Source: a virus | IMG/VR virus record: IMGVR_UViG_3300012080_000001 | Span: 1-61,056 of that record | Direction: 5' to 3' (one strand) | Length of the DNA: 61,056 nt | Part shown: positions 6,091-56,894 of the stretch, one piece after another | How the letters are laid out: the number at the start of each line of letters is the position of its first letter | Numbering within the stretch: the first letter of the stretch is position 1 | The notes under the pieces: generated by a model | Databases searched by the model: none | The model's input: only the letters and a program-made list of their open reading frames with translations | Told to the model about the DNA's origin: nothing | Translations under genes and position numbers: made by a program

Positions 6091-6858
6091 CTAATTTGCG
6101 TCAAAATAGCGTTTTCCTCTCAATGATTCTCCTTCAAAAGCAATGACAGCGCATTGTTTTTTATCCCTAACACGGTCATACAATCTACGATCAAATACCG
6201 TTTCCAATTCTTCAATTGGTATATTTGATGTATATACGGTTGGTAATCCATTTGTAACCCGATGATTAATAATTGTATGCAAGTCAGATCTAAATGCCTC
6301 GCTTGCTCCTCGCACACCAATATCATCAAGTACCGCGAAAGGTACATATTTTGCTCGTTCCATCATTTCGTAATATGGCCTACTATATCGTTCGGCCACG
6401 TCTTGTGGTATATTTGAGCGATTAAATCCGTTGTATAACGTTTGCCATGCGTTTACATCAAGAAAGTATGCAGGAGACTGTGTCGGTTGTTTTCCTGCCT
6501 TTAATGCCCCTAGATAGTCAGCAATAACATATTCGTTAAGAAGTGCTGCTGCTGTCGTTGTTTTGCCTGTTCCTGTTTCAACACTAAATAGATAAAGTGA
6601 TTTAATGTTATCAGCACTTGCGTCATAAATGCGTTTAAATGTTTCTACATATCGGTCAACTATTCCATAAGCCTTTTCTTGTCCTTCACGTACAGGTGAT
6701 GTATTAACAGTTACTTGGCTATAGTTTGTTGGGACACCTACGTTAGCCAATCGTCCATTGACACCGATATAGTGTTGACAAGCATTCGGACAATTTGAGC
6801 AACCATTTTTGTTTCGACTATTCAGTATGCAATTTCTTTTATTTATTATCATAGCCAA
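6091..6858 (-). CDS. DnaC/IstB-like AAA+ helicase loader
   Basis: Walker A ETGTGKTT, Walker B FAVLDDIG, N-terminal Cys cluster CSNCPNAC; adjacent to the helicase. Confidence 0.65.
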   Translation of the reverse strand: MAMIINKRNCILNSRNKNGCSNCPNACQHYIGVNGRLANVGVPTNYSQVTVNTSPVREGQEKAYGIVDRYVETFKRIYDASADNIKSLYLFSVETGTGKTTTAAALLNEYVIADYLGALKAGKQPTQSPAYFLDVNAWQTLYNGFNRSNIPQDVAERYSRPYYEMMERAKYVPFAVLDDIGVRGASEAFRSDLHTIINHRVTNGLPTVYTSNIPIEELETVFDRRLYDRVRDKKQCAVIAFEGESLRGKRYFDAN

Positions 6859-7235
6859 TCCGTCACCTCCTCATATTCTTCGGTAACTTGAGTAGTCAAC
6901 TCTTCACGTTTTTCTACTATTTCTGCTTGTTGTAGTAGTCTAGACTGGTACGTCACCATAAACCAAAATGTTAACCCTGGGTATTGCGCTGTTGGCTTAT
7001 ACTCTGCAAAACAAGCATCAATAAAATGTTTCATCACATTTTTACTGTATAAACCTGTCTTACGTGCTGTTCCGATATACTTTACGATTAAATTACGCTC
7101 CGCCACAATACCACTAGAAGAAGTATATAGGATACCAAAGTATTTGACATGTTGATCACATAAGTACGATTGGAAATGTGCGCTATTCCACTTTTCTATT
7201 GGTGTTTCGCTATAGTGCGTTGCTTTCTTCGTCAT
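6849..7235 (-). CDS. Hypothetical replication-module protein
   Basis: 128-aa ORF translationally coupled to the loader gene. Confidence 0.45.
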   Translation of the reverse strand: MTKKATHYSETPIEKWNSAHFQSYLCDQHVKYFGILYTSSSGIVAERNLIVKYIGTARKTGLYSKNVMKHFIDACFAEYKPTAQYPGLTFWFMVTYQSRLLQQAEIVEKREELTTQVTEEYEEVTDWL

Positions 7236-7277
7236 AAATAACGCCTCTTTCTGTAGTAGTAATCGTTCTATATTCCG

Positions 7278-7487
7278 TTAAAGTTGCGATTGTTTTAAGA
7301 TGTCGGTATGCTCTGCTAACATGCTGTCTCCAGTGATGATTTGTTCTAACGAACAGTTTTCGCATTTGAAGATATGAACGCCATATTGCGTTGCATAACT
7401 GAAAATGTGGTCACAACAATTTGTATTTTTTTGCACGTGATTACTGTTAATTCCGATCATTACTTTAACACTCTCCTTTATTAACAT
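7278..7487 (-). CDS. Hypothetical small Cys-containing protein
   Basis: 69-aa ORF with CCDH...CENC. Confidence 0.4.
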   Translation of the reverse strand: MLIKESVKVMIGINSNHVQKNTNCCDHIFSYATQYGVHIFKCENCSLEQIITGDSMLAEHTDILKQSQL

Positions 7488-7554
7488 TGGCGTAATGTTT
7501 TAGATTACGATCATATCGATAAATTAATAGTTGATATGGAGCGATAGCGACATA

Positions 7555-7582
7555 GAGTATTTATGCTTTAGCATGAATACTC
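7555..7582. repeat. 13-bp-arm hairpin (1 mismatch, 2-nt loop)
   Basis: gagtatttatgct tt agcatgaatactc. Confidence 0.8.
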
Positions 7583-7683
7583 GTTAATATTTTAAAGATA
7601 GTAGTATAGTTAAAAAGAAAGTAGTATAGTTCGTGTACCCGGTTTGACACCCCTAAGGCATATCCAATCTGACACTCCTAACA

Positions 7684-10237: not shown

Positions 10238-10252
10238 GTATCTGTATCATTT

Positions 10253-10334
10253 TACGGTAAATTTTACGGAATAAATTACGGTAAAAATATAGAAAGTAGT
10301 TGCAATACGGTAAATGTGTGATATAATTACGGTA
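10253..10334. promoter_or_regulatory. parC: parC-like centromere/operator: five TACGG(T/A)A iterons
   Basis: Copies at 10253, 10265, 10277, 10306 and 10328, directly upstream of parM and overlapping its promoter. Confidence 0.6.
10300..10327 (+). promoter_or_regulatory. Sigma-A-type promoter of the par operon
   Basis: TTGCAA, 16-nt spacer, TGaTATAAT (extended -10). Confidence 0.55.
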
Positions 10335-10358
10335 TAAAATACTTTCGGAGGCGATTGG

Positions 10359-11432
10359 ATGCATTTATTTGGATTAGATTTAGGAAACCGTCAAGTTAAG
10401 CTTATGAGCGAAAAAGGTACAAAAGTCTTACCTAGTTATTATGTTGATGTAACAGAATATGGGAAAAGAGACGCAATTTCACTAACTAGAACAAGCGAAA
10501 AAACAACTAGTGATTATATAAGCCAACGCGATTCAGACTTCACATACGTATGGGGACCAGGATTAGATGTAAGTAGAAAGAACGTTACTGATACTTTAGA
10601 TTTTAATAAACGTTACGATACACTTGAATTTAAGTTATTGGTTGACTTTGCATTAGCCGAATTGGCTCGCGACTTTAAAGACGCTTCGAAAGGTATCTTG
10701 GACGTAGTGATTGTAACGGGGGTTCCAACGGAAGATTATGAAAAGGACGAAACAATCTCGCACATTACAAACGCATTAAAAGGCGTTCATAGCGCAATGG
10801 TTGACGGAACTTCTTACGTTATTAATGTACACGAAGTTTACGTATTAATGCAGCCAGTTGGTACGGCAATCGATGTTATGGTCGATGCTAATGGAAATAT
10901 CGTTGAAGATAACGATATTGAAGAAGGTTACGTGGGTGTCGTAGATGCTGGTGGAGGTACTGTATTAGTCGACGCTTTTGAGAAAATGAATCTCGATACG
11001 AAAAACCGCGTACAATTAGAAGAAGGTTCGCACGATTTATTTACGGAGATTCGTAATCGAGTTATCGCGATGGGACATAAAATTACGGATCATGAAGTTG
11101 AGCGCGTAGTAAGAGACGGAAATGCACGCGAAATTTACACATGGTCGCCTAATGGACGCGAAACAATTGATTTAACAAGCATAGTAATGAAAGAACGTAA
11201 ACGTTATACACGTAAAATCGCGCAATCAGTTAAATCAACGTATAAAGCAATCGCACGTATGCGCAAAATATACGTAACTGGCGGAACTGCGAATTTATTC
11301 GTAAAAGAAGAATTTGAACGCGTAATCAAAATCGCTCAATTCGTATCGGATAGCGAAACCGCAAACGTAAGAGGCTATTATAAATACGGATTAATTAACG
11401 AGGTGACTGAGGTTGACGAAGTTAAGAGTTGA
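10359..11432 (+). CDS. parM: ParM/Alp-type actin-like plasmid segregation ATPase
   Basis: 357 aa; N-terminal phosphate-1 motif FGLDLGNRQVK, later VVDAGGGT and YVTGGTA actin-fold motifs. Confidence 0.8.
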   Translation: MHLFGLDLGNRQVKLMSEKGTKVLPSYYVDVTEYGKRDAISLTRTSEKTTSDYISQRDSDFTYVWGPGLDVSRKNVTDTLDFNKRYDTLEFKLLVDFALAELARDFKDASKGILDVVIVTGVPTEDYEKDETISHITNALKGVHSAMVDGTSYVINVHEVYVLMQPVGTAIDVMVDANGNIVEDNDIEEGYVGVVDAGGGTVLVDAFEKMNLDTKNRVQLEEGSHDLFTEIRNRVIAMGHKITDHEVERVVRDGNAREIYTWSPNGRETIDLTSIVMKERKRYTRKIAQSVKSTYKAIARMRKIYVTGGTANLFVKEEFERVIKIAQFVSDSETANVRGYYKYGLINEVTEVDEVKS

Positions 11433-11673
11433 GGTCGTTTTAACGGATGCTGACGCTGATATTATAGAGTATTTATCGAAACATGATATACCGAGAGCAA
11501 CGCAATTCAAGAATGCTATTCGCGAAAGGATGCAACGTCGTGAAGAAGAACAGTTTGACGAGCGAGTTAAACGATTATTGGGCGAGGTAATGGCATCGCA
11601 AGGAATTAGCGCTCCACAAGTTGCAAAGGTAGAGAGCAAGAAACGCTTAGGATTTGGAGCGAAAAAAGTATAA
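11413..11673 (+). CDS. parR: ParR-like ribbon-helix-helix centromere-binding adaptor
   Basis: 86 aa overlapping the parM end; N-terminal beta-strand/helix pattern KLRVEVVLTDADADIIEYL; basic C-terminus. Confidence 0.5.
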   Translation: MTKLRVEVVLTDADADIIEYLSKHDIPRATQFKNAIRERMQRREEEQFDERVKRLLGEVMASQGISAPQVAKVESKKRLGFGAKKV

Positions 11674-11677
11674 AAAT

Positions 11678-11716
11678 AAGACCGAGTAGACGCGGAATGT
11701 CCGCTCGGTCTTTTTC
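11678..11716 (+). terminator. Rho-independent terminator after parR
   Basis: aagaccgag...ctcggtctt stem followed by a T-run. The right half plus the next 16 nt recur at 14054..14082. Confidence 0.65.
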
Positions 11717-11759
11717 TATAACTTGAATGGAGACGAAAAGATTAAGGAGTTACTAGAAG

Positions 11760-12867
11760 ATGATTCTGGCAAAGAAAGTTAGAATATACCCAAGTAAATC
11801 GCAAGAACAAAAGTTGTGGCAATCAGTAGGAACAGCGAGATTTATTTATAATTGGACATTGGCAAAACAAGAAGAAAATCATAATAATGGCGGCAAGTTT
11901 ATAGCTGATGGTGTGCTTAGGAAGGAATTAACCCAACTAAAGAAAACGGAATTGTCTTGGTTAAATGAAGTATCTAACAATGTAGCAAAACAGGCGGTTA
12001 AAGATGCCTGTGATGCGTATAAAAAGTTTTTTAAATAAGCCGACATTTAAGAGTAAAAGAAAAAGCAAAAAGTCCTTTTACAATGACAATGTAAGTTTAA
12101 AAGTAAAAGATGGAAAACAGGTACTCATTGAAAAAGTGGGTTGGATCAGTACGAACGAACAAATACCTATTGGTGTCAAATACACTAACCCTAGAATTAC
12201 TCATGACAATAAGTATTGGTATTTATCAGTAGGAATAGAGCAAGAAACTAGTCAAGAAGAAATGACAGATGTTTCTTTAGGGATAGATATTGGGGTAAAA
12301 GCATTAGCGGTCTGTTCAAATGGTACAGTTTATAAAAATATTAATAAAAATAATGCCGTTAAAAAGACTGTGAAACGCTTTAGTAGGTTGCAACGACAAG
12401 TTTCTCGTAAATATGAAATGAATAAGGAGGGAAACCGTTTTGTCAAAACAAGCAACGTTATAAAAATCGAAAAGAAGATACAACTCCTGCATAGAAGATT
12501 ATCAAATATCAGAAAGAACCATCTTCATCAAAGTACAAATGATATTGTGAAAACCAAACCATATCGAATTGTAATGGAGACTTTGAACATCAAAGGGATG
12601 ATGAAGAACAGACATTTATCGAAAGCTATTGCAAAGCAATGTTTGTATGAGTTCAAAAGACAAATTCAATATAAATGCGAAAAGTATGGAATTGAATTTG
12701 TAGAAGCTGATAAATGGTATCCATCTTCAAAAATGTGTTCAAGTTGTGGAAGCATTAAAAAAGACTTGAAGTTGTCTGACCGAATATACGAATGTGTATG
12801 TGGCCATAAGATGGACAGGGATTTAAATGCATCTATCAATTTAGCGCATTATCAATTAGCAAACTAA
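11760..12867 (+). pseudogene. tnpB: tnpB RNA-guided nuclease, interrupted by a single frameshift near 12020..12035
   Basis: ORFs 11760..12038 and 12004..12867 join as ...AYKKFF / KPTFKSKRK at an A5-G-T6-A3 tract. RuvC motifs GIDIGV, VMETLN and DRDLNAS and a CSSCG...CVCG zinc finger are intact. Confidence 0.85.
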
Positions 12868-13012
12868 CACTTAAACGTTATTGCTAATATGTAGGATTCG
12901 TTGCATCCGAATTTACGCTTGTGGAGTGTTACAGTAAACGAAAGTAGCTTCGGCAAAATCGGACACGTAGAAGCAAGAATTAAACAAGATTTATAGATTT
13001 TTATAAATTTTT
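12868..13012 (+). ncRNA. Candidate omega-RNA (reRNA) scaffold of the TnpB unit
   Basis: Position is immediately 3' of tnpB. A local hairpin ggattcg ttgcatc cgaattt is present. No covariance model was run, so extent and 3' end are guesses. Confidence 0.35.
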
Positions 13013-13090
13013 GGCAACGGTATTAACAAGCCGGTTGTAAATGAAGTAAAACCAAAGAAGAAGTTGCCTTTTGGAGCTAAAAAAGGATAA
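13007..13090 (+). pseudogene. Relic of a second, diverged parR 3' end
   Basis: Start-less frame IFGNGINKPVVNEVKPKKKLPFGAKKG* aligns with the parR C-terminus SQGISAPQVAKVESKKRLGFGAKKV*. Confidence 0.7.
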
Positions 13091-13105
13091 ATTGATAATT
13101 GAAAA

Positions 13106-13142
13106 ACCGAGTGGACAACCTATCGTCTACTCGGTTTTTTTC
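13106..13142 (+). terminator. Rho-independent terminator, homologous to the parR terminator
   Basis: accgagtggac aacctatc gtctactcggt (11 bp) followed by T7. Confidence 0.7.
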
Positions 13143-13240
13143 TTTTTCTTCTTCTTTTTAGGTACGGTAGGGTAGCCGTATTTTTCAGACATCTTACGTA
13201 CACCTTCTACAATTGCGCGCTTTTTATCTTCGGTTGTCAT
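13127..13240 (-). CDS. Possible 37-aa protein with a poly-Lys tail
   Basis: Hand translation MTTEDKKRAIVEGVRKMSEKYGYPTVPKKKKKKKKTE; weak SD. Confidence 0.25.
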   Translation of the reverse strand: MTTEDKKRAIVEGVRKMSEKYGYPTVPKKKKKKKKTE

Positions 13241-13312
13241 CGTAAAAACACCGCCTTTTTTATTTTCATCCTGTCCAAATAATCAACTTTCTAAACGGTA
13301 TAGAACTAGCAA

Positions 13313-13363
13313 GTCCCTCATACTTTATATAAATGTGCTAGGGACATGTGGAATGTGTCCCTA
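13313..13363. promoter_or_regulatory. Operator-like half sites GTCCCT / TAGGGACA-N9-TGTCCCTA around a TATATAAAT -10-like box
   Basis: Palindrome 13339..13346 / 13356..13363 plus an extra half site at 13313. Confidence 0.45.
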
Positions 13364-13390
13364 ACTTAGATGTCCTTTAGGAGGCGGAAA

Positions 13391-14020
13391 ATGAAAATTA
13401 AAAGTGTGGGGGAGACCCTTTCAGTACGCTCTGATAAAAAGCGCGACGTGAAGCCCACTATTCCTATGGATTTAAAAGATGTCCTCTATCGTATTTCTTA
13501 TATAACGTATTCCCCTGTCAAAGACGTTTGCCAACAGATGGCGATGCTTGTCTTACATGACCGCAAAACAATAGAACACTTATCGAAATATTTCAAGCGC
13601 GATTTAATCATGGGCAATACGATGTTTGTTGGGAACATTACGAATGAAACTATGGAAAAGCGCCCTAAAGTGCGCGGAGAACGCGTAACCATCCGTTTCA
13701 CTCAGAAAGAATTTGAGTCGGTAGCGCTGCTTAGTTACGCGCTGGACTGTACACCTTCACGTACAGTTGCGATTCTGCTCGACATCAGTATGAAGAATGT
13801 TCGGTTTGTTAATGCGTACATTAAGCGTTACTTAACTGAGGAACTGAATGACTCGCAAATGCGTGAGCTACAGGCGATTTTACGATATGTCAACAAGGTT
13901 GGAGAATCGTACTTTTCTTGGGCGTCGTTACTCGAGCATGTTCTTGCAGAAGTCGGCAGTCCAGTATCAAGGATCAAGGAAGCTGTAAGCGAATTTATCG
14001 ATATGAAATGGCGTGAGTGA
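13391..14020 (+). CDS. Hypothetical protein with an RHH-like segment
   Basis: Start at ATG 13391 after GGAGGCGG; internal RVTIRFTQKEFESVALLSYAL resembles ribbon-helix-helix/MobC-type motifs. Confidence 0.45.
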   Translation: MKIKSVGETLSVRSDKKRDVKPTIPMDLKDVLYRISYITYSPVKDVCQQMAMLVLHDRKTIEHLSKYFKRDLIMGNTMFVGNITNETMEKRPKVRGERVTIRFTQKEFESVALLSYALDCTPSRTVAILLDISMKNVRFVNAYIKRYLTEELNDSQMRELQAILRYVNKVGESYFSWASLLEHVLAEVGSPVSRIKEAVSEFIDMKWRE

Positions 14021-15882: not shown

Positions 15883-16560
15883 TCAATTTTTTATTCGTCG
15901 TTGTTGTATCGTAATATACAATCCTAATAAACGATCAGTAGTCATTGTTCCACTTTGCAAATTCATTAAATGCGACTCTTGGATAATTCCATCTTTCACT
16001 GCCTGCGCAATATAATTTTCTGTTTCCGTTTTAATCGCCGGTGATTGCGGATTCCATACGTTTGCCATTGGTTTAGCCTCCTCGTTCTTTCCATCTGAAA
16101 CTGTTAATACGACTTTCCCTGTGCTAGTTGATGGTACTTTAACGCCTGCAATTACTTTAACATCATAGCTTAAAGGTAATCGCCAGTTAGCGTTTATCTC
16201 GAAATGTGGACGGTCAATACTGCCTATCCAATCGCCTCCCCACGTAATGCCTAGTTTTCGAGCGATAGCGCCAGCCTTATTCAATGTTGCTGTATCGTAA
16301 AGTGTTCTCGGAGGACATGCTGCAATATCCCACGCCATACGTGAAGTATGACGGCTCGACTTCGTCCACGTAACAATTGCGCCTGTACGACTGCGCCCCT
16401 GTTCATATAAATAGTTTTGACGTGCTTGACTACGAAAAGTCTCCGTCACAAATACGTTAATTCCTGCTTTATTGCACTCGTAAAAGAACACCCGAATAGC
16501 TGTTTGCGCAAGAGAATTAAGCTCAGCAACGTCACGACAAGTTTGCGTAACAGAAGTCAT
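15883..16560 (-). CDS. Endolysin, peptidase M15 (VanY/L-Ala-D-Glu peptidase-like) with a C-terminal binding domain
   Basis: SRHTSRMAWDI and DRPHFE zinc-ligand motifs. Confidence 0.8.
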   Translation of the reverse strand: MTSVTQTCRDVAELNSLAQTAIRVFFYECNKAGINVFVTETFRSQARQNYLYEQGRSRTGAIVTWTKSSRHTSRMAWDIAACPPRTLYDTATLNKAGAIARKLGITWGGDWIGSIDRPHFEINANWRLPLSYDVKVIAGVKVPSTSTGKVVLTVSDGKNEEAKPMANVWNPQSPAIKTETENYIAQAVKDGIIQESHLMNLQSGTMTTDRLLGLYITIQQRRIKN

Positions 16561-16850
16561 CGTCTCACGTCCTTTTTAGGCAGATTATACGACATTGCTT
16601 GTCGGCTATCCGATAGTCCACGCGTCGTAGGGTCATTAATGGCGTTGTACACGCTCACGACCGCAGTAGCTAAGACATACGGATTAGATAGCGCATCGAC
16701 AGCGAGTTTGCCTACGCTTCCCCATGTCGTCAAATCTGCGCCAGTAATTCCGTAATAAGCGAATACTGGTGTTGCGATAGATAGCGCAATTTGAATCCAG
16801 AATTGCGGATTCTTTGCGCGTACTTTATAGTTAATTTTCATCCGTTTCAC
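16557..16850 (-). CDS. Holin
   Basis: 97 aa with TM segments, directly upstream of and overlapping the endolysin. Confidence 0.6.
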   Translation of the reverse strand: MKRMKINYKVRAKNPQFWIQIALSIATPVFAYYGITGADLTTWGSVGKLAVDALSNPYVLATAVVSVYNAINDPTTRGLSDSRQAMSYNLPKKDVRR

Positions 16851-35276: not shown

Positions 35277-37277
35277 TCATTTATTTATTCCATAATTTTG
35301 GGCCAACCGCCATACGGCGCCTCGTGAAGTATTATACTTCTTTCCAATATCTTGATATCCTAATCCTTTTATCACTATCAAATCATGTAGTGTCTCTTTT
35401 GAAATCACATCTTTTAGTGTAGGCTTTCTTATATCCAATTTCTTTTGTATTAATGTAGTTGAGCATTTGTATCTTTCTGCTAATTTTCTGAATGTCCACC
35501 CCTGAAGATAAAGTCTTTTAGCTTCTTCTAAGGGTATATCATCCCTAGTACTCCTGTGCTTAATGTGAATATCATTTTTACGCAAATATTTCGCTACTGT
35601 TATTGGTGATAAGTTTAACTTATCTGCCGTATCACGTAGACAATGATTTTCGCTATATAGCTTTAAAATACTAGTTTCGTCAATTTGTCTAAGTATACCG
35701 AGTTCTTTCATTCTTGCCCTCACTACACTCTCAGATACCTGTAATATAGCAGAAACTTCAAGTATTGTATGTCCATCACTCAATAATCTTTTTAAAACAA
35801 CATCGTCAACTTTTATTTTATTTCTTTGAAGATCGATGCTGATGTTATTTTCCTTTAGTAACTCTCTTACTGCCCACTCTGGTATTTTATAGTGCTGTGC
35901 CACTTCTTTAACTGTTTTATCGGAACTCCTATACATACTAATTAGCCCTTGTATGTCATCAAATAATGTGTACCCAATACCATCGTCTTTTACTTTATAC
36001 CTTCGAATATTAGTATTAACTCCATTATCTCTTAAAACTTTTGAAACTTTATTTAAAGAACAATCTAATTCTTTGGATATTTGATTCATCGACATTCCGC
36101 TCTTAAATAGCGGATAAACTAACTCGTACGTAATGTCTAGTCTCAGATGGTTTGTTGTGCGCTCTATCCCATATGACTTTAGCGATTTTTTAATTTCCCA
36201 CTTCGTCATCCCTAATTCTTCTCCTATTTTCCTAACAGATAAACCTTCATTATATTTGGTTAAAATAAGGGATGTATCTTTAGTTAGTAAGCTGAATGCA
36301 TCTGCATAATATTTAATATCAGGTGCTCTGCACGGATACTTTGCGCTATGGAACTCATATGCAATCGAACTAAAGTTTTTTGTCTCCAATTGTCTTTGTA
36401 ACCAATATTTATTTTGGAATGCAAACAGAAGCCCTTTATGGTTCATGTAAGCAATAGTTCTGTGATGATCAACGTTAGTAGTTTTACGCATTTCTTTTAA
36501 TGACATATTAAAATGGTTTTTATCGACGTACTCTCTCCATTCTTTCTCTAGAATTTCAAAATGAATCACTTCAAACTTCTCTTCGCTATGCTGATTGTGG
36601 TGACATAAATCACATAATGTGATTAAGTTATTTATATCTGTTAATCGACTATCTCTTTCGCAAATATCTACAAAAATTAAGCGTTCCTTTTCATCTAAAA
36701 GACTTAGCTTAGGGTTTTCAGAAAGTATGTCCTGTACAATATCGGAGAACCTTCGAAGGTGATGAGCATGTAAATTTCGAGGAGCTCCACACTCCCCACA
36801 CTTGTATCCATCTAAGGCTAAACGTTCTTTAGAGACCCACGCTAACCTATTTCTAATTAACCTAGAGACTGCTGTTACTCCGCCTTTCCATCTCGGATGT
36901 TCATCTAACCGCATACCCCATTTTTCCTTACGTTCTTCCGAGGTAAATGACTTATCTCCAGCATTCAACCTTATCTGTATGTTAAATTTCTTTAATCTTT
37001 TAAGGACTAAACGATTACTGCATCCAACTTTTGCTGCAATATCCCTAGAACTTAACTTTTGGATATTATATAAATCCTCTAATAGCTCTTTTGTTAAGTT
37101 TGGATACGTGTTGGGCTTTCTTCTTCCAACACCAACTTCATCTAGTCTACGTAATATTAATGTACTACTTACATTGAATAAGCCTGCTATCTGGTTACTA
37201 GACATCCCTTTTAAGTATAATTTGACAATATCTTCGTTTTTAATATGTGTATATCGGTTACGTGCTACTCTTGTCAT
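35277..37277 (-). CDS. Free-standing HNH endonuclease with about 11 tandem HTH (NUMOD1-like) modules
   Basis: HNH core CGECGAPRNLHAHH...LITLCDLCHHNQH. Repeated units of about 35 aa follow the pattern LY..G.S...IA..L.vS..tV.r.Lk..gI. Start at ATG 37277 (GAGGAGTG SD). AT-rich relative to flanks. Confidence 0.7.
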   Translation of the reverse strand: MTRVARNRYTHIKNEDIVKLYLKGMSSNQIAGLFNVSSTLILRRLDEVGVGRRKPNTYPNLTKELLEDLYNIQKLSSRDIAAKVGCSNRLVLKRLKKFNIQIRLNAGDKSFTSEERKEKWGMRLDEHPRWKGGVTAVSRLIRNRLAWVSKERLALDGYKCGECGAPRNLHAHHLRRFSDIVQDILSENPKLSLLDEKERLIFVDICERDSRLTDINNLITLCDLCHHNQHSEEKFEVIHFEILEKEWREYVDKNHFNMSLKEMRKTTNVDHHRTIAYMNHKGLLFAFQNKYWLQRQLETKNFSSIAYEFHSAKYPCRAPDIKYYADAFSLLTKDTSLILTKYNEGLSVRKIGEELGMTKWEIKKSLKSYGIERTTNHLRLDITYELVYPLFKSGMSMNQISKELDCSLNKVSKVLRDNGVNTNIRRYKVKDDGIGYTLFDDIQGLISMYRSSDKTVKEVAQHYKIPEWAVRELLKENNISIDLQRNKIKVDDVVLKRLLSDGHTILEVSAILQVSESVVRARMKELGILRQIDETSILKLYSENHCLRDTADKLNLSPITVAKYLRKNDIHIKHRSTRDDIPLEEAKRLYLQGWTFRKLAERYKCSTTLIQKKLDIRKPTLKDVISKETLHDLIVIKGLGYQDIGKKYNTSRGAVWRLAQNYGINK

Positions 37278-37423
37278 ACTAATCACTCCTCGTTGTGATT
37301 TCTCGGTATAAATAAGGTGGAAACACATCGAGATATGTGCTTGTTAATTCAGGGAGCTACCCTTCATCTATCCACCTATGATGGTTATCGGCATAAATTT
37401 GCGTTAGTTTAGCGTTAATTATA

Positions 37424-53550: not shown

Positions 53551-53934
53551 TTAATCGAAGTGAAAATCTGAGTCATGTAGGGGTTCGACAGTTGCCTTTT
53601 TATATCCGTTTCCCTTCATCGAAAAGAAGTCATGTGATTTTGTTTTCGTCGATAGTCCGTTTAAAACGATTGGATTAAAGTTGTCATGCATGTAATAAGT
53701 GTCAAAGCCTAAGTTGGATAAGGCTTTATTAGCGTTGTACTGAACGAAATTAAGGACATCGTATGTCAAACCAACATCATCATAAATGTCTGCGGTATAT
53801 AACGCTTCGTTCTGGTATAGCTTTTCAAGTGTCTCGTGTACCCACGTAGACAATTCGCTTTGTACCTCAGACGATTGGCGGTTATAAATTTCCTGCGCTA
53901 ATAAACCGACATAGACTCCGTGAATACTCTCATC
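53551..53934 (-). CDS. nrdF: Ribonucleotide reductase class Ib beta subunit, exon 2
   Basis: Begins [15 protein letters not shown], completing the iron-ligand motif ...IINLIIR|DESIHG. Confidence 0.85.
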
Positions 53935-54216
53935 CGTTGTATTCAAGTGAGTTCGCTAGGCTCACCCCGTTCTCTTATGAACTGCTACGTATTTCTACGC
54001 AGACTAGACTATATCATGCGCCATAAAGCGCCTCCCCTTTTCGAACGCCAATCGCTTGCGTTCTACTCTACTAACTTCCGCATTTCTGCGTGTTTTCGAT
54101 AGTCGTTGAACCTTCGATACTTTGCCACCCATGCTTATATCGTATCGCTTGGCTGCGGATTGCCCTTGTAGGGTGTCCCCGCAATTAAAGGAGTTTTGAA
54201 TCCGCCACAAAAGTTA
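53935..54216 (-). ncRNA. Group I intron (282 nt, ORF-less) in nrdF
   Basis: All four classical core elements are present: P AAUUGCGGG (54177..54186), Q AAUCCGCAGCC (54151..54161), R GUUCAACGACUA (54100..54111), S GAUAUAGUC (54007..54015). A 7-bp P1 pairs AAUCCGU with GCGGAUU. The intron ends in G. Confidence 0.85.
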
Positions 54217-54801
54217 ACGGATTATTAGGTTGATGATCTCACCAGCCTGCATTAGTTTTCCTTGTCCGTACATATACAATGGATAGTAGAAGCCACTGTA
54301 AAATAAGAATGACTCAAGGAATACTGATGCAACTAGTGCTTTATAGAGTGAAATATCATCGTTATTTTTAATCGACTTATATTGCGTCACAATGACGTCA
54401 GCTTTTGATTGCAAATATTGATTTTCTGTTACCCAATCGAACACACCTTTAATTTCCTCACGGTTTGCTAAAGTTAAGAAAATGTTAGAGTACGATTTGG
54501 CATGGACTGAGTTCTCCATAGCAGACATGAATGTAAGCAGTGCTTGTCGCTGATGTCCTTTAATATGCGGAATTAATCGTGGTATACCCACTCCTTGCTC
54601 TGTATCAAGCAACGTCAATCCGCCAAGTACGCGCATATAAGCTTTCTGCTCTGCGTTTGATAGCCCCTTCCAAGTCAATAAATCCGGTGTGAGCGATATT
54701 TCTTCTGGTAGCCAAAACTGTGAGTGATTCTGCTTTAGAAAAGCCTGCGTAAATGAATCGTCATCTATCGCATAGTTAGCAGCCGTATATACATTGGTCA
54801 T
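54217..54801 (-). CDS. nrdF: Ribonucleotide reductase class Ib beta subunit, exon 1
   Basis: Start at ATG 54801 (GGAGG SD); ends ...GEIINLIIR. Confidence 0.85.
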
Positions 54802-54812
54802 AAAATTCCTCC

Positions 54813-56894
54813 TTAAACTTGGCACGCAAGACATGTATCTGCACCTGTATCTTTTGTTCGTGCATAGTAAAGTGTCTTGATTCCTTTATGATGAGCGTAT
54901 AAATCAATCTTCGTTAAATCTCGCGTTGTCATTGTGTCACGTAGGAACAATGTAAAACTAATGCCCTGATCAACATGTCGTTGTATCGTTGCAATTAAAT
55001 CAACAACATTTCTCATATCCATTTCATACGCTTCTTTGTAGTACCCCCATGTCTTATATGACAGGTTTGGCATTGGATAGTATGTTTTCGAATTACCATA
55101 AGTTCGTTCTTCGATACGCTCCATAATTGGCATAACGCTCGCTGTTGCAGATTGTACATAACTTATTGAGCCTGTCGGAGCAATTGCAAGGCGATAAGCA
55201 TTATATAAGCCATATTTAGCTACATCGGCTACTAATTCCATCCAGTCGTCTGTTGTAGGTAACTCGATGCCGTCAAATAAAGATGCAATGTACTCGTCTT
55301 TCGGTAAATAACTATTGTTGACGTAGTCTAAGAAGTAACTACCATCGGCATAACTCGACTTTTCAAATCCTAAAAATACAGTTTCTTTTTGTTTTGCTAT
55401 CTCCATTGAACGTTTAATAGAGTAATAGTTAACTGCAGCAAAGAATACATCTGCAAATTCAATGGCTTTTGAGCTTTCATAGTCAATTCCTACACTCGCT
55501 AGATAGCCATGTAAGTTCATAGCACCTAAACCAATCGAATGCATTTCCTTATTTGCTTTTGAAACTGCTGGAGCATTTGTAATATTTGTTGCCTCAGACA
55601 CAATTGTTAAAGCATCTGTAGCTAAAGATACTACACGGTCAATGTCTTTTAACCGCATAATATTAGCAATATTCAATGATCCTAAATTACATGAAATGTC
55701 TAATCCGATTTCATCTTGTTGTCCATAATCTGTGTACGTTGATTGCTCGGATAATTGTAAAATCTCACTGCACAGATTTGAAAATTTCACAGTTCCATTT
55801 AAAGCATGAGCTTCGTTCACATTGTCACTAAACATAATATAAGGATAGCCCGACTCAAAGCGTAATGCTGCAATCTTTTCAAGTAATTGTCGTGGATTAA
55901 CTTTGTCTTTTCGTATTGCAGGATTAGTTACTAACTCCTCATATCGTGATGATATGTCTATATCAGAGAAGCGTTCCCCTGTAGCCATTTCTACAGTATG
56001 TGGATAGAAAATGTAAGCTGGTTTATTCTCTCTAGCAAGTTCGATAAACTTATCTGGAATAACAACGCCAATTGATAGCGTTTTTACTCGTACATCTTCA
56101 TCAGCACTAATTTTTTTCGTATCAAGAAAGTCGTTAATATCTGCGTGAAAGACATTTAAATAGGCTGCTCCAGCACCAGGGCGCTGGCCCATTTGATTTG
56201 CATACCGAAAAGCATGGTCAAGCATTTTCATAACGCCAACAACGCCTTTTGAAACGTTTCTAATACCCTTGATGGACTCACCTTTAGCTCGGATATTGGA
56301 TAAGTTTAGTGATACGCCTCCGCCTACTTTTGAAAGCTGTTTAGCTGTTGATTCTGCCATATTAATATCGTTTAAGCTGTCGCCTACTTCCGTTAAAAAA
56401 CAAGATACTAGTTCACCTCTGCGTTTACGTCCTACATTTAAAAACGTAGGTGTCGCTGGTTGGTACTCCTGTTCGATAAGTAAGTCGGCATAATCGAGCG
56501 CCTTTTGCGGATCACCTTCTGCAAAAAATAAAGCATTTACTGCGATGCGATCCTCGTATCGTTCTAAAATACACTCTTTATCATCTGTCATTAATGCGTA
56601 ATCATTATAAAACTTGTATGCGGACATGAAAGAAGGAAAACGGAATTTCTTCGCATAAGCACGTTTATAGACAGCTTTTACTTGTTCAAAGGTATACTGT
56701 TCGAATAACTCTTGTTCGTAATAATTGTTTTCAAATAAATAGTTGAGCTTTTCGCGCAAGTTATGGAAAAACATCGTCTTTTTATTAACGTAATCTAAAA
56801 AGTAAGCGCGTGTTGCTTCCTGATCTTTTTCGTATTGATAAATGTCTTTATCGCCTTGTAGCATTATTTCGTTATTTAATTCGTAGTATCGCAA
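54813..56894 (-). CDS. nrdE: Ribonucleotide reductase class Ib alpha subunit
   Basis: 693 aa; NLCSEI and C-terminal YYARTKD...CLACQV features. Confidence 0.9.

Follow-up and report, generated by a model that had tools for sequence, protein, structure and literature searches.

The tnpB gene and the adjoining guide RNA that follow the partition genes in the 61,056-nt window (the whole stretch of DNA analyzed here) are best explained as the remnant of an IS607-family element that landed in a parR gene and now marks a recombination joint between phage-plasmids. We put the probability of this whole account at roughly 80%. The tnpB/reRNA unit is decayed, is no longer mobile, and is not competent to encode its protein. 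We see in it the usual decay of a mobile element and not a weapon directed at rival plasmids. The coordinates of the features are given in Table 1.

Table 1. Features of the partition locus, the IS607 remnant and the adjoining right arm, in window positions.
Feature	Positions	Strand	Basis
parC-like iterons	10252..10336	+	four TTACGGTAAA copies 5′ of parM; repeat search
parM, actin-like partition ATPase, L010-type allele	10359..11432	+	Pfam ALP_N + Alp7A_like_C
Resident gene for parR-like adaptor, complete (86 aa), L010-type allele	11413..11673	+	ORF; overlaps parM
Terminator A, hairpin + T-run	11678..11717	+	fold -19.5 kcal/mol, z -4.3
Unassigned joint, ~20 nt; illegitimate-recombination or deletion joint	11718..11737	.	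no significant match to relatives
IS607-type tnpA remnant, last 14 codons + stop (KIKELLEDDSGKES*), overlaps tnpB start	11738..11782	+	TnpA C-terminus of relatives
tnpB 5′ fragment, 92 codons, ends at frameshift-caused premature stop	11760..12038	+	Pfam HTH_OrfB_IS605; alignment of relatives
11-nt deletion site, frameshifts tnpB	12033..12034	+	DNA alignment, five relatives
tnpB 3′ part, +1 frame, RuvC D/E/D + zinc finger intact	12034..12867	+	Pfam; 8iaz alignment
reRNA (omega-RNA) scaffold, wholly 3′ of tnpB, ends GGCAACGG	12868..13020	+	Rfam RF03064; copies conserved to right end
reRNA guide position, TATTAACAAGCCGGTTGTAA	13021..13040	+	first 20 nt past mapped right end
L100-type parR relic, last 22 codons + stop (INKPVVNEVKPKKKLPFGAKKG*)	13022..13090	+	ParR tail + DNA identity
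Terminator B, form common to all sister phage-plasmids	13101..13140	+	fold -23.2 kcal/mol
Conserved 37-aa ORF, poly-lysine tail, first gene of L100-like right arm	13127..13240	-	97% L100, 89% L010
Downstream 209/216-aa gene, L100-like right arm	13370..14020	+	aa identity 94.3% L100, 83.7% L010, 52.9% L011

The original prediction described a tnpB with one frameshift inside a partition locus, next to the parR terminator. We find parM, an overlapping parR and a hairpin terminator, and after them a split tnpB. Judged from sequence, the locus has the parts of a ParMRC-type system, namely an actin-like ATPase gene with a small adaptor gene 3′ and iterons 5′ of it. The resident 86-aa product has no Pfam family match; a protein search returned 46 homologues, with an actin-like neighbor gene in all contigs fetched. 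We call the gene parR (putative) because of its position 3′ of parM and the context of its homologues. The parM product is 93% identical (aa) to those of the related L010 and L011 vs 60% to those of L100 and L009, and the resident ParR is 87% identical to that of L010 vs 55% to that of L100. Type II ParMRC and Alp7AR-like loci share the order iterons, actin-like ATPase gene, overlapping small adaptor gene and terminator, and the C-terminal tail of the adaptor is conserved within each lineage, as it is here. Unlike these loci, the window locus holds the adaptor tails of two lineages, and the second tail is a start-less fossil of 22 codons behind the IS remnant.

IS605 elements have a Y1 (HUH) TnpA, subterminal hairpins, an omega-RNA that overlaps the 3′ end of tnpB, and an AT-rich TAM. 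The element had been assigned to this family, which the RAGATH-18 RNA and the serine-recombinase tnpA of its relatives correct to IS607. None of the ISDra2-type traits (Y1 TnpA, subterminal hairpins or palindromic ends, overlapping omega-RNA, AT-rich TAM) apply to the window element, and its conserved RNA scaffold lies 3′ of the tnpB stop. What it has in common with IS200/IS605 TnpBs such as that of ISDra2 is membership in the RNA-guided RuvC nucleases, which have a homing role in the ISDra2 type, and a guide taken from the right flank. The IS200/IS605-type structures 8bf8 and 8exa are more distant matches to the window TnpB (E = 2e-41) than the best solved match, 8iaz (E = 2.3e-75), an entry titled 'Transposase' that we take to be the IS607 TnpB of ISFba1. 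We read it this way because the residue numbering of PMC11061315 agrees once it is shifted by 3. The RuvC D/E/D residues and a CxxC...CxC zinc finger align with 8iaz, so the claim that both are intact holds. The ORF at 12004..12867 matches Pfam OrfB_IS605 and Cas12f1-like_TNB, and across its whole span (11760..12867) the gene retains the HTH, OrfB_IS605/RuvC and zinc-ribbon domains of an IS607 tnpB, though the ORF is broken by an 11-nt deletion.

IS607 TnpBs with a RAGATH-18-derived reRNA are known from ISFba1 and 22 other elements (Ren et al., Cell Res 2024, PMC11061315). The window element resembles the ISFba1 type in its RuvC triad and zinc finger within a ~370-aa TnpB, in a guide RNA that lies wholly 3′ of the gene around a RAGATH-18 core, in a guide formed by the DNA immediately past the right end (PMC11061315), and in the serine-recombinase tnpA of its intact relatives. 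Overlapping tnpA genes with MerR-HTH and Resolvase domains are found in L033, L020-22, L025, L034 and L095. Unlike ISFba1-type elements, the window copy has a frameshifted tnpB and is without tnpA and without a left end. Its scaffold has a 3′ flank of 41 nt vs 64 nt in ISFba1. By our reading of the 8iaz alignment two TAM-contacting residues differ from ISFba1 (K80 to N and N121 to D), and the TAM of the window TnpB is therefore probably not AGGAG. IS607 elements of Clostridium botulinum excise scarlessly and the donor joint is re-cut by TnpB; their TnpA requires a GG core and the scaffold ends ...CGG (Zedaveinyte et al., bioRxiv 10.1101/2023.11.20.567912). The window scaffold also ends ...CGG with the GG core dinucleotide serving insertion, and the copy on a BKT015925 plasmid (L006) ends ...TTTTGGCAACGG, the same as in the window. 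In contrast to these elements the window copy is immobile and non-coding, and unlike CboIStron it is without an internal group I intron. We conclude that the tnpB element is, by sequence, a descendant of the IS607 family and not a complete member of it, because its tnpA is reduced to a tail and no other tnpA is present; a search of the whole window found no other tnpA or tnpB sequence.

The search with omega-RNA models that had been proposed places a RAGATH-18 core 3′ of tnpB at 12918..12979 (RF03064; 71 bits vs a gathering score of 44.9, over the full model length), between conserved scaffold flanks at 12868..12917 and 12980..13020. The fold of the single scaffold sequence is indistinguishable from that of shuffles (z -1.2), so the RNA call rests on the Rfam covariance match and not on folding energy. 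The scaffold runs to the right end of the element (...GGCAACGG, that is ...TTTTGGCAACGG), which falls at 13020 by comparison of ~25 independent copies with unrelated flanks beyond this point. The recombination core is the terminal GG (13019..13020), in keeping with the way IS607 elements insert, at a GG of the target and with no target-site duplication, and intact empty relic-type alleles read CAAGG at the point homologous to the right junction. The right end had been placed near 13006, with the relic starting from about 13007. This boundary was too far upstream and the first five supposed relic codons (IFGNG) belong to the IS, but the guide position is parR-derived all the same. With the right end at 13020 the guide is 13021..13040; the guide length of 20 nt and the scaffold layout are those described in PMC11061315. 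The guide is unique within the window at ≤3 mismatches. The intactness of the scaffold is compatible with a recent death of the element, and also with retained use.

The frameshift that had been noticed in tnpB is real. Its cause is not a homopolymer tract but an 11-nt deletion. Each of five aligned relatives carries 11 extra bases at this point (AAGGGTTAGCC in L012), and in the context TTTTTCA[AAGGGTTAGCC]AATAAGCC the bracketed bases are missing from the window, which brings a stop into frame at 12036..12038. The same comparison rejects a miscall in the T6/A5 homopolymers, and therefore resequencing of the T6 run would leave tnpB broken. Programmed slippage was rejected as well, as a -1 slip on T TTT TTA gives the wrong frame. 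An identical deletion is present in a separate ENA MEGAHIT contig (L013), although its reads may be the same. The gene is thus without the uninterrupted ORF of ~370 aa expected of a functional TnpB nuclease. The dN/dS between the 3′ part and L012 is 0.14, which suggests that tnpB was inactivated recently.

The solo tnpB was correctly described as sitting directly after the parR terminator. What had been taken for an unusually short left end of ~28 nt is actually the 3′ end of tnpA, of which only 14 codons and the stop remain where a serine-recombinase gene would lie 5′ of tnpB and overlap it; the remnant KIKELLEDDSGKES matches KKMIKELLEDDTGKES, the TnpA C-terminus of the relatives. The left junction falls within this gene and not where a left end adjoins target DNA. 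It is therefore the product of rearrangement, not of transposition or homing. Homology to L010 and L011 was last seen by blastn at 11717, the end of terminator A, and for 11718..11737 no tnpA, left end or relative gave a significant match, so that nothing resembling a left end is found at the junction. We considered whether 11710..11737 stems from the region that codes for the TnpA N-terminus, through a deletion lineage shared with L012 and L014, where tnpA is internally deleted. Only a TATAAC hexamer is shared and local alignments are no better than shuffles, so the idea was rejected and the stretch stays unassigned. No promoter-like site is predicted between 11716 and 11760.

Beyond the right end, the start-less parR C-terminus and homologous terminator that had been recognized 3′ of tnpB are indeed present. 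The relic tail is identical at 20/22 residues to the intact ParR P0167 and at 18/22 to P0030, and its DNA is 83% identical to L009, in frame and with the stop at the same place. By these alignments, the resemblance to ParR tails is far beyond chance. A direct repeat in the relic region matches 11653..11674, the end of the resident parR. The allele type was predicted to exist in other replicons, and it does, intact, as P0167 on contigs L100-L104 and P0030 on L009. These relatives were recovered through the protein database only. BLASTN of 13000..13400 (the relic and its flank) and of the par region against phage and plasmid collections gave no match, and a DNA search with a 25-kb stretch of the window gave only short matches of ≤ ~230 bp in unrelated phages. 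Neither the exact 20-mer guide nor amino-acid-level degenerate relic patterns were found in metagenome_contigs and viral_contigs, and the exact relic allele (a 20/20 guide match) was not found in any searched collection. The simplest reading of the relic is that it is the stranded end of the parR into which the IS inserted.

The two flanks of the element come from different lineages. DNA to its left is 82% identical to L010 vs 70% to L100, while DNA to its right is 78% identical to L010 vs 85% to L100, and the right-arm genes are 94-97% identical to the L100 lineage, the carrier of the relic-type ParR tail. L010 and L011 provide the empty sites, running uninterrupted from parR through the terminator into the downstream region. 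The sequence type of terminator B also occurs in L007, L010, L011 and L100. We read the locus as the joint of two related phage-plasmid lineages, L010-type to the left and L100-type to the right. A second crossover was not found within reach of the L100-lineage contig, which is only 6.2 kb long. The sister element L007 has a different insert at this position, 1.2 kb long and bounded on either side by a copy of the terminator. Exchange may have recurred at the par-distal terminator.

The order of events that we infer begins with an IS607-family element carrying a serine-recombinase tnpA, tnpB and a RAGATH-18-type reRNA. It would have entered an L100-type parR of a Lysinibacillus-like phage-plasmid, at a GG dinucleotide that is part of the Gly codon lying 22 codons ahead of the stop; the empty site reads ...CAAGG|TATTAAC.... 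An reRNA across the right end would then have carried the L100-type parR tail as its guide, because every TnpB element takes its right flank as guide. In a later recombination or deletion, a complete L010-type parC-parM-parR-terminator module would have become fused to tnpA within its 3′ end, at the cost of the previous parM, the 5′ part of the previous parR, the IS's left end and almost all of tnpA. Loss of the ParR tail would have favored this replacement. With the loss of 11 nt tnpB would have become a pseudogene, leaving a TnpB/reRNA fossil between the working par module and the tail of the replaced one. The reverse direction, in which an L010-type plasmid imported the IS remnant together with an L100-type right arm, would give the same structure.

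In every TnpB, IscB or IS607 element the guide equals the element's own right flank by construction. The suggestion that this element is programmed against a foreign allele is right in that the DNA past the right end is parR-derived, but a matching flank is intrinsic to all such elements and would not require selection. It had been proposed further, as a speculation, that the nuclease is used to cut the partition locus of competing phage-plasmids. As an RNA-guided incompatibility weapon, the reRNA would direct a TnpB to the L100-type parR of sibling phage-plasmids; this TnpB would be the element's own, made by recoding or from split fragments, or an intact one that the host provides in trans. 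The full-length, well-conserved scaffold, the intact RuvC and zinc-finger residues, and the presence of relic-type par loci on sister elements sharing the backbone speak for it. An intact TnpB (P0047, 89% identical) is also known from run ERR11042132, and the sister plasmid L011 comes from the neighboring accession ERR11042128. Against it, tnpB carries the frameshifting 11-nt deletion, and a strong terminator lies directly 5′ where no promoter-like site is predicted. The resident parR differs at the guide bases as had been stated (9/20 matched by our count), but even the natural alleles nearest to the guide agree with it at no more than 15/20 bases (mismatches counted at positions 1, 2, 10, 14 and 16), and cleavage by ISFba1 TnpB is reduced or lost when one base in positions 1-13 is mismatched (PMC11061315). 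The 5 nt preceding the parR site are CAAGG, which equals none of the measured TAMs of relatives, AGGAG and GAGGG (PMC11061315) or the TGGG required by CboTnpB, in which the G at -3 is most strictly required (bioRxiv 10.1101/2023.11.20.567912). An inference of the subfamily's TAM from the flanks to the left of intact copies (AGAGG, GAAGG/AAGGG, GTGGG and GGAGG) was set aside, since the independent sites were too few and the left-end boundaries ambiguous. Among the alleles and contigs searched, no natural target was found that combines a full guide match with a TAM known from characterized relatives. The anti-plasmid nuclease is thus unsupported and we consider it very improbable. We give just as little credence to the specific version in which an reRNA made by read-through of the par operon pairs with an intact IS607 TnpB supplied in trans (e.g., P0047) and cuts L100-type parR as an incompatibility determinant.

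TnpB-driven homing, in which the IS lineage spreads preferentially between par loci by cut-and-copy and the locus is a product of this, had also been offered and is similarly remote. IS607 TnpB does help its element to be retained at donor joints through cut-and-copy (bioRxiv 10.1101/2023.11.20.567912), and at the right junction the element has gone cleanly into parR at a GG. However, no parM or parR lies within ~1.5 kb of any of 93 related tnpB loci, the surroundings of the closest relatives (L012 and L014) are unrelated, the left junction is inside tnpA and not at a left end, and the resident parR matches the guide poorly. Chimeric assembly joins arise inside shared repeats, and a misjoin of two co-occurring related phage-plasmids, possible in principle for a metagenome contig with related parental types, is the least credible reading, given that the joints are unique sequence (terminator A/tnpA tail and right end/relic), that the two terminator copies differ, and that a separate ENA MEGAHIT contig (61,074 bp) shows no difference across a stretch of 5,855 nt that includes both junctions, although its reads may be the same.

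None of these findings should surprise specialists. For scans of such elements they are a caution that a guide targeting a given gene is by itself no evidence of function; intactness, TAM, expression and an existing matching target need to be checked before functional claims are made. The preserved junction between right end and flank is informative in another way. Through 22 codons of an IS-disrupted parR it reveals the exchange of a whole parMR module (ParM 60% vs 93% identical), which presumably changes the partition specificity of the phage-plasmid.

The window looks like a phage-plasmid. It encodes a family A DNA polymerase, ribonucleotide reductase, methylase, helicase, and primase along with parMR, and its portal match is weak, under the cutoff. 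The closest relatives are a 58-kb Lysinibacillus capsici PB300 contig and three environmental contigs of 57-61 kb. Next to the ribonucleotide reductase large-subunit gene and short ORFs lies a group I catalytic intron (Rfam RF00028, 66.8 bits vs. a gathering score of 50), which probably interrupts a phage nucleotide-metabolism gene. The phage structural-gene region encodes a 683-aa protein of unusual architecture, a long series of helix-turn-helix units that matches HTH_23, HTH_38, HTH_7, and Sigma70_r4 repeatedly over its full length. The original prediction described the par locus as parR, a terminator, a split tnpB, a start-less parR end (the relic), and a second terminator, and this description is essentially correct. 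The stability of terminator A was equalled by no shuffled sequence. Every sister element has a terminator of the B form; terminator A has diverged from this form and arrived with the left module.

Features of the par locus and other regions of the window
Feature	Position	Details
Iterons	10252..10336	four TTACGGTAAA, upstream of parM
parM, actin-like	10359..11432	Pfam ALP_N 6.8e-19, Alp7A_like_C 2.1e-9
parR-like gene	11413..11673	86 aa, ORF overlapping parM
Terminator A		hairpin 3′ of parR-like gene, -19.5 kcal/mol
tnpA remnant	11738..11782	KIKELLEDDSGKES*, only part matching TnpA C-terminus KKMIKELLEDDTGKES*
tnpB, 5′ frame	11760..12038	match to HTH_OrfB_IS605
tnpB, 3′ frame	12004..12867	matches to OrfB_IS605 and Cas12f1-like_TNB
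RAGATH-18	12918..12979	71 bits vs. gathering score 44.9, full model length
Guide position	13021..13040	TATTAACAAGCCGGTTGTAA, first 20 nt past right end
parR relic	13022..13090	INKPVVNEVKPKKKLPFGAKKG*, start-less parR C-terminus and stop
Terminator B	13101..13140	second and stronger, 3′ of relic, -23.2 kcal/mol
37-aa ORF	13127..13240 (-)	C-terminus of eight lysines (MTTEDKKRAIVEGVRKMSEKYGYPTVPKKKKKKKKTE)
683-aa protein	35277..37328 (-)	helix-turn-helix units
Short ORF	53551..53946	adjoins intron
Group I intron	53985..54225 (-)	RF00028
Short ORF	54214..54834	adjoins intron
Ribonucleotide reductase	54813..56894	large subunit

The sequence evidence places the element in IS607 and contradicts its earlier assignment to IS605. 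About 150 nt of non-coding DNA lie between tnpB and the relic, and RAGATH-18 is the sole strong Rfam match in the region. RAGATH-18 RNAs are the core of the IS607-type reRNA (the TnpB guide RNA), which lies wholly downstream of tnpB and is followed by a 20-nt guide (Ren et al., PMC11061315). In many tnpB relatives, another gene overlaps the start of tnpB, so that its 3′ end occupies the DNA immediately 5′ of the ATG; its product, 208 aa long, has a MerR-type HTH and a Resolvase domain and is the IS607 serine-recombinase TnpA. Among solved structures the frame-corrected TnpB best matches 8iaz (E = 2.3e-75); the IS605 TnpB of ISDra2 is far more distant (2e-41). The deposition title of 8iaz is only "Transposase", and we take it to be ISFba1 TnpB because the residue numbering of PMC11061315 fits after a shift of 3. 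As predicted, this alignment shows conservation of the RuvC D/E/D residues and of the zinc-finger cysteines. The two closest tnpB relatives are tnpA-less derivatives that retain tnpB and the reRNA, with the first ~18 codons of tnpA joined to the last ~17 (L014 1933..2020, L012 1..53). Contigs L027 and L019/L043 carry further tnpA-deleted forms. In another TnpB branch (phage 250/IEBH, pCT14, C. botulinum p2BKT015925), tnpA directly 5′ of tnpB is replaced by a small divergent ribbon-helix-helix gene (L004 11..181, L006 771..911; also L001/L015, L023, L026, L028, L030, L031).

To map the right end, we compared the window with ~25 copies from Bacillus phages and plasmids, a C. botulinum plasmid, IMG/VR contigs, and Logan contigs, all in unrelated contexts. 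Conservation in every copy runs to ...TTTTGGCAACGG, two copies from one insertion site ending GGCAACAG instead, and complete divergence begins one base past the right end. The right end in the window is 13020, which therefore sets the guide position. Its final GG fits the GG core needed by IS607 TnpA, and the known scaffold ends ...CGG (bioRxiv 10.1101/2023.11.20.567912). The relic had been started at 13007, and its first five "codons" (IFGNG) are instead the end of the IS.

The relic of a different parR allele is real. Searching proteins with the resident ParR as query returned P0030, a ParR of 87 aa whose tail GVSRPIVNEVKPKKKLPFGAKKG is 18/22 identical to the relic; with a relic-tailed query the match was P0167 (tail GVNKPIVNEVKPKKKLPFGAKKG, 20/22), carried by six contigs from several samples. 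At the homologous site these intact genes read ...CAAGG/CGTTAACAAACCG..., and the GG of the Gly codon marks precisely the junction of the IS right end with the relic. Compared with L100, a contig carrying P0167, 15/70 nt of the relic differ but only 2/22 residues (hand count), so the divergence was mostly synonymous and is older than the loss of function. Between parR and the terminator, relic-type par loci have an extra small ORF of 74 or 54 aa (L100 3771..3995, L009 1523..1687), missing at the window relic and at loci of the L010 type. In R1-type ParR, ParM is contacted by the C-terminal tail.

The locus appears to be a recombination joint of two phage-plasmid lineages. In one sister lineage (L010 and L011), parR, its stop, terminator B, the 37-aa poly-lysine ORF (opposite strand), and a 209-aa gene run without a break. 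L100 shares this backbone and has a different par module. Left of the IS, ParM and ParR are 93.3 and 87.2% identical to L010 vs. 60.4 and 54.7% to L100, a 6-kb contig; right of it, the 37-aa ORF and the 209-aa gene are 89.2 and 83.7% identical to L010 vs. 97.3 and 94.3% to L100. DNA identity switches too (left, 82% L010 vs. 70% L100; right, 78% vs. 85%), and another segment, 16556..16748, is 91.7% identical to L100. Either direction of exchange is compatible with this pattern. The simplest account would have three steps. An IS607 element would have inserted into parR of an L100-type element, severing the 22-residue tail; recombination or deletion would then have joined the 3′ end of tnpA to a parMR-terminator module of the L010 type; and tnpB would have decayed. 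The 37-aa ORF (L010 4292..4405, L100 4026..4139) is 89-97% identical among sister elements, and the T-rich tail of the bidirectional terminator supplies its poly-K codons. At the equivalent site of the sister element L007 (L. capsici PB300 contig_22, 6328..7625) lies a different ~1.2-kb insert with minus-strand ORFs, flanked by two terminator B copies. Exchange or insertion may recur at the terminator 3′ of parR.

The IS607 element itself appears to be a dead remnant. The window reads ...NLNGDEKIKELLEDDSGKES* in the tnpA frame, and neither an IS left end nor tnpA-like sequence beyond the remnant was found in it. The supposed left end, called unusually short, is the joint left by a deletion within tnpA, where just the TnpA C-terminus is matched. 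The tnpB frameshift was confirmed, and it is a deletion, not a homopolymer miscall. Relative to five relatives in a DNA alignment, tnpB lacks 11 nt, TTTTTCA[AAGGGTTAGCC]AATAAGCC, and fixing the T6 run alone leaves a protein four residues short. An ENA MEGAHIT contig (61,074 bp) is identical to the window over 5,855 nt, including this deletion. Terminator A sits 43 nt 5′ of the tnpB ATG, and no promoter-like site was found in that interval. The closest intact TnpB, P0047 on L012, has 91% DNA and 89% protein identity, and the dN/dS of 0.14 against L012 suggests that tnpB evolved under constraint for the greater part of its divergence and became inactive recently; the reRNA scaffold remains intact.

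We consider it very improbable that this reRNA is used in trans by an intact TnpB from elsewhere in the cell. The guide is indeed relic sequence and the allele exists elsewhere, as predicted; a targeting function does not follow. The guide matches its best natural target at 15/20 positions (mismatches at 1, 2, 10, 14, and 16) and the resident parR at 9/20 (hand counts), and in ISFba1 TnpB one mismatch within positions 1-13 inactivates or strongly impairs (PMC11061315). The TAM position of the parR site reads CAAGG, which differs from the AGGAG or GAGGG (PMC11061315) and TGGG (G at -3 most strictly required; 10.1101/2023.11.20.567912) measured in relatives, although these may not be the TAMs of this subfamily. 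By our reading of the 8iaz alignment, the window TnpB departs from ISFba1 TnpB at two of the four residues that contact the TAM. TnpA needs GG alone, so occasional insertion beside a non-TAM is expected. This target and TAM position and the broken tnpB speak against a nuclease that attacks the par loci of rivals. Homing into par loci is not supported either: the left joint does not coincide with an end of the transposon, and the fetched flanks of 93 related tnpB loci contain neither parM nor parR; the closest relatives occupy unrelated DNA. The proposed functions are not supported, and the guide sequence is a by-product of the IS landing place. The window element is an immobile, pseudogenised IS607 TnpB/reRNA kept at a par-module exchange joint, a new instance of an already known kind of element.
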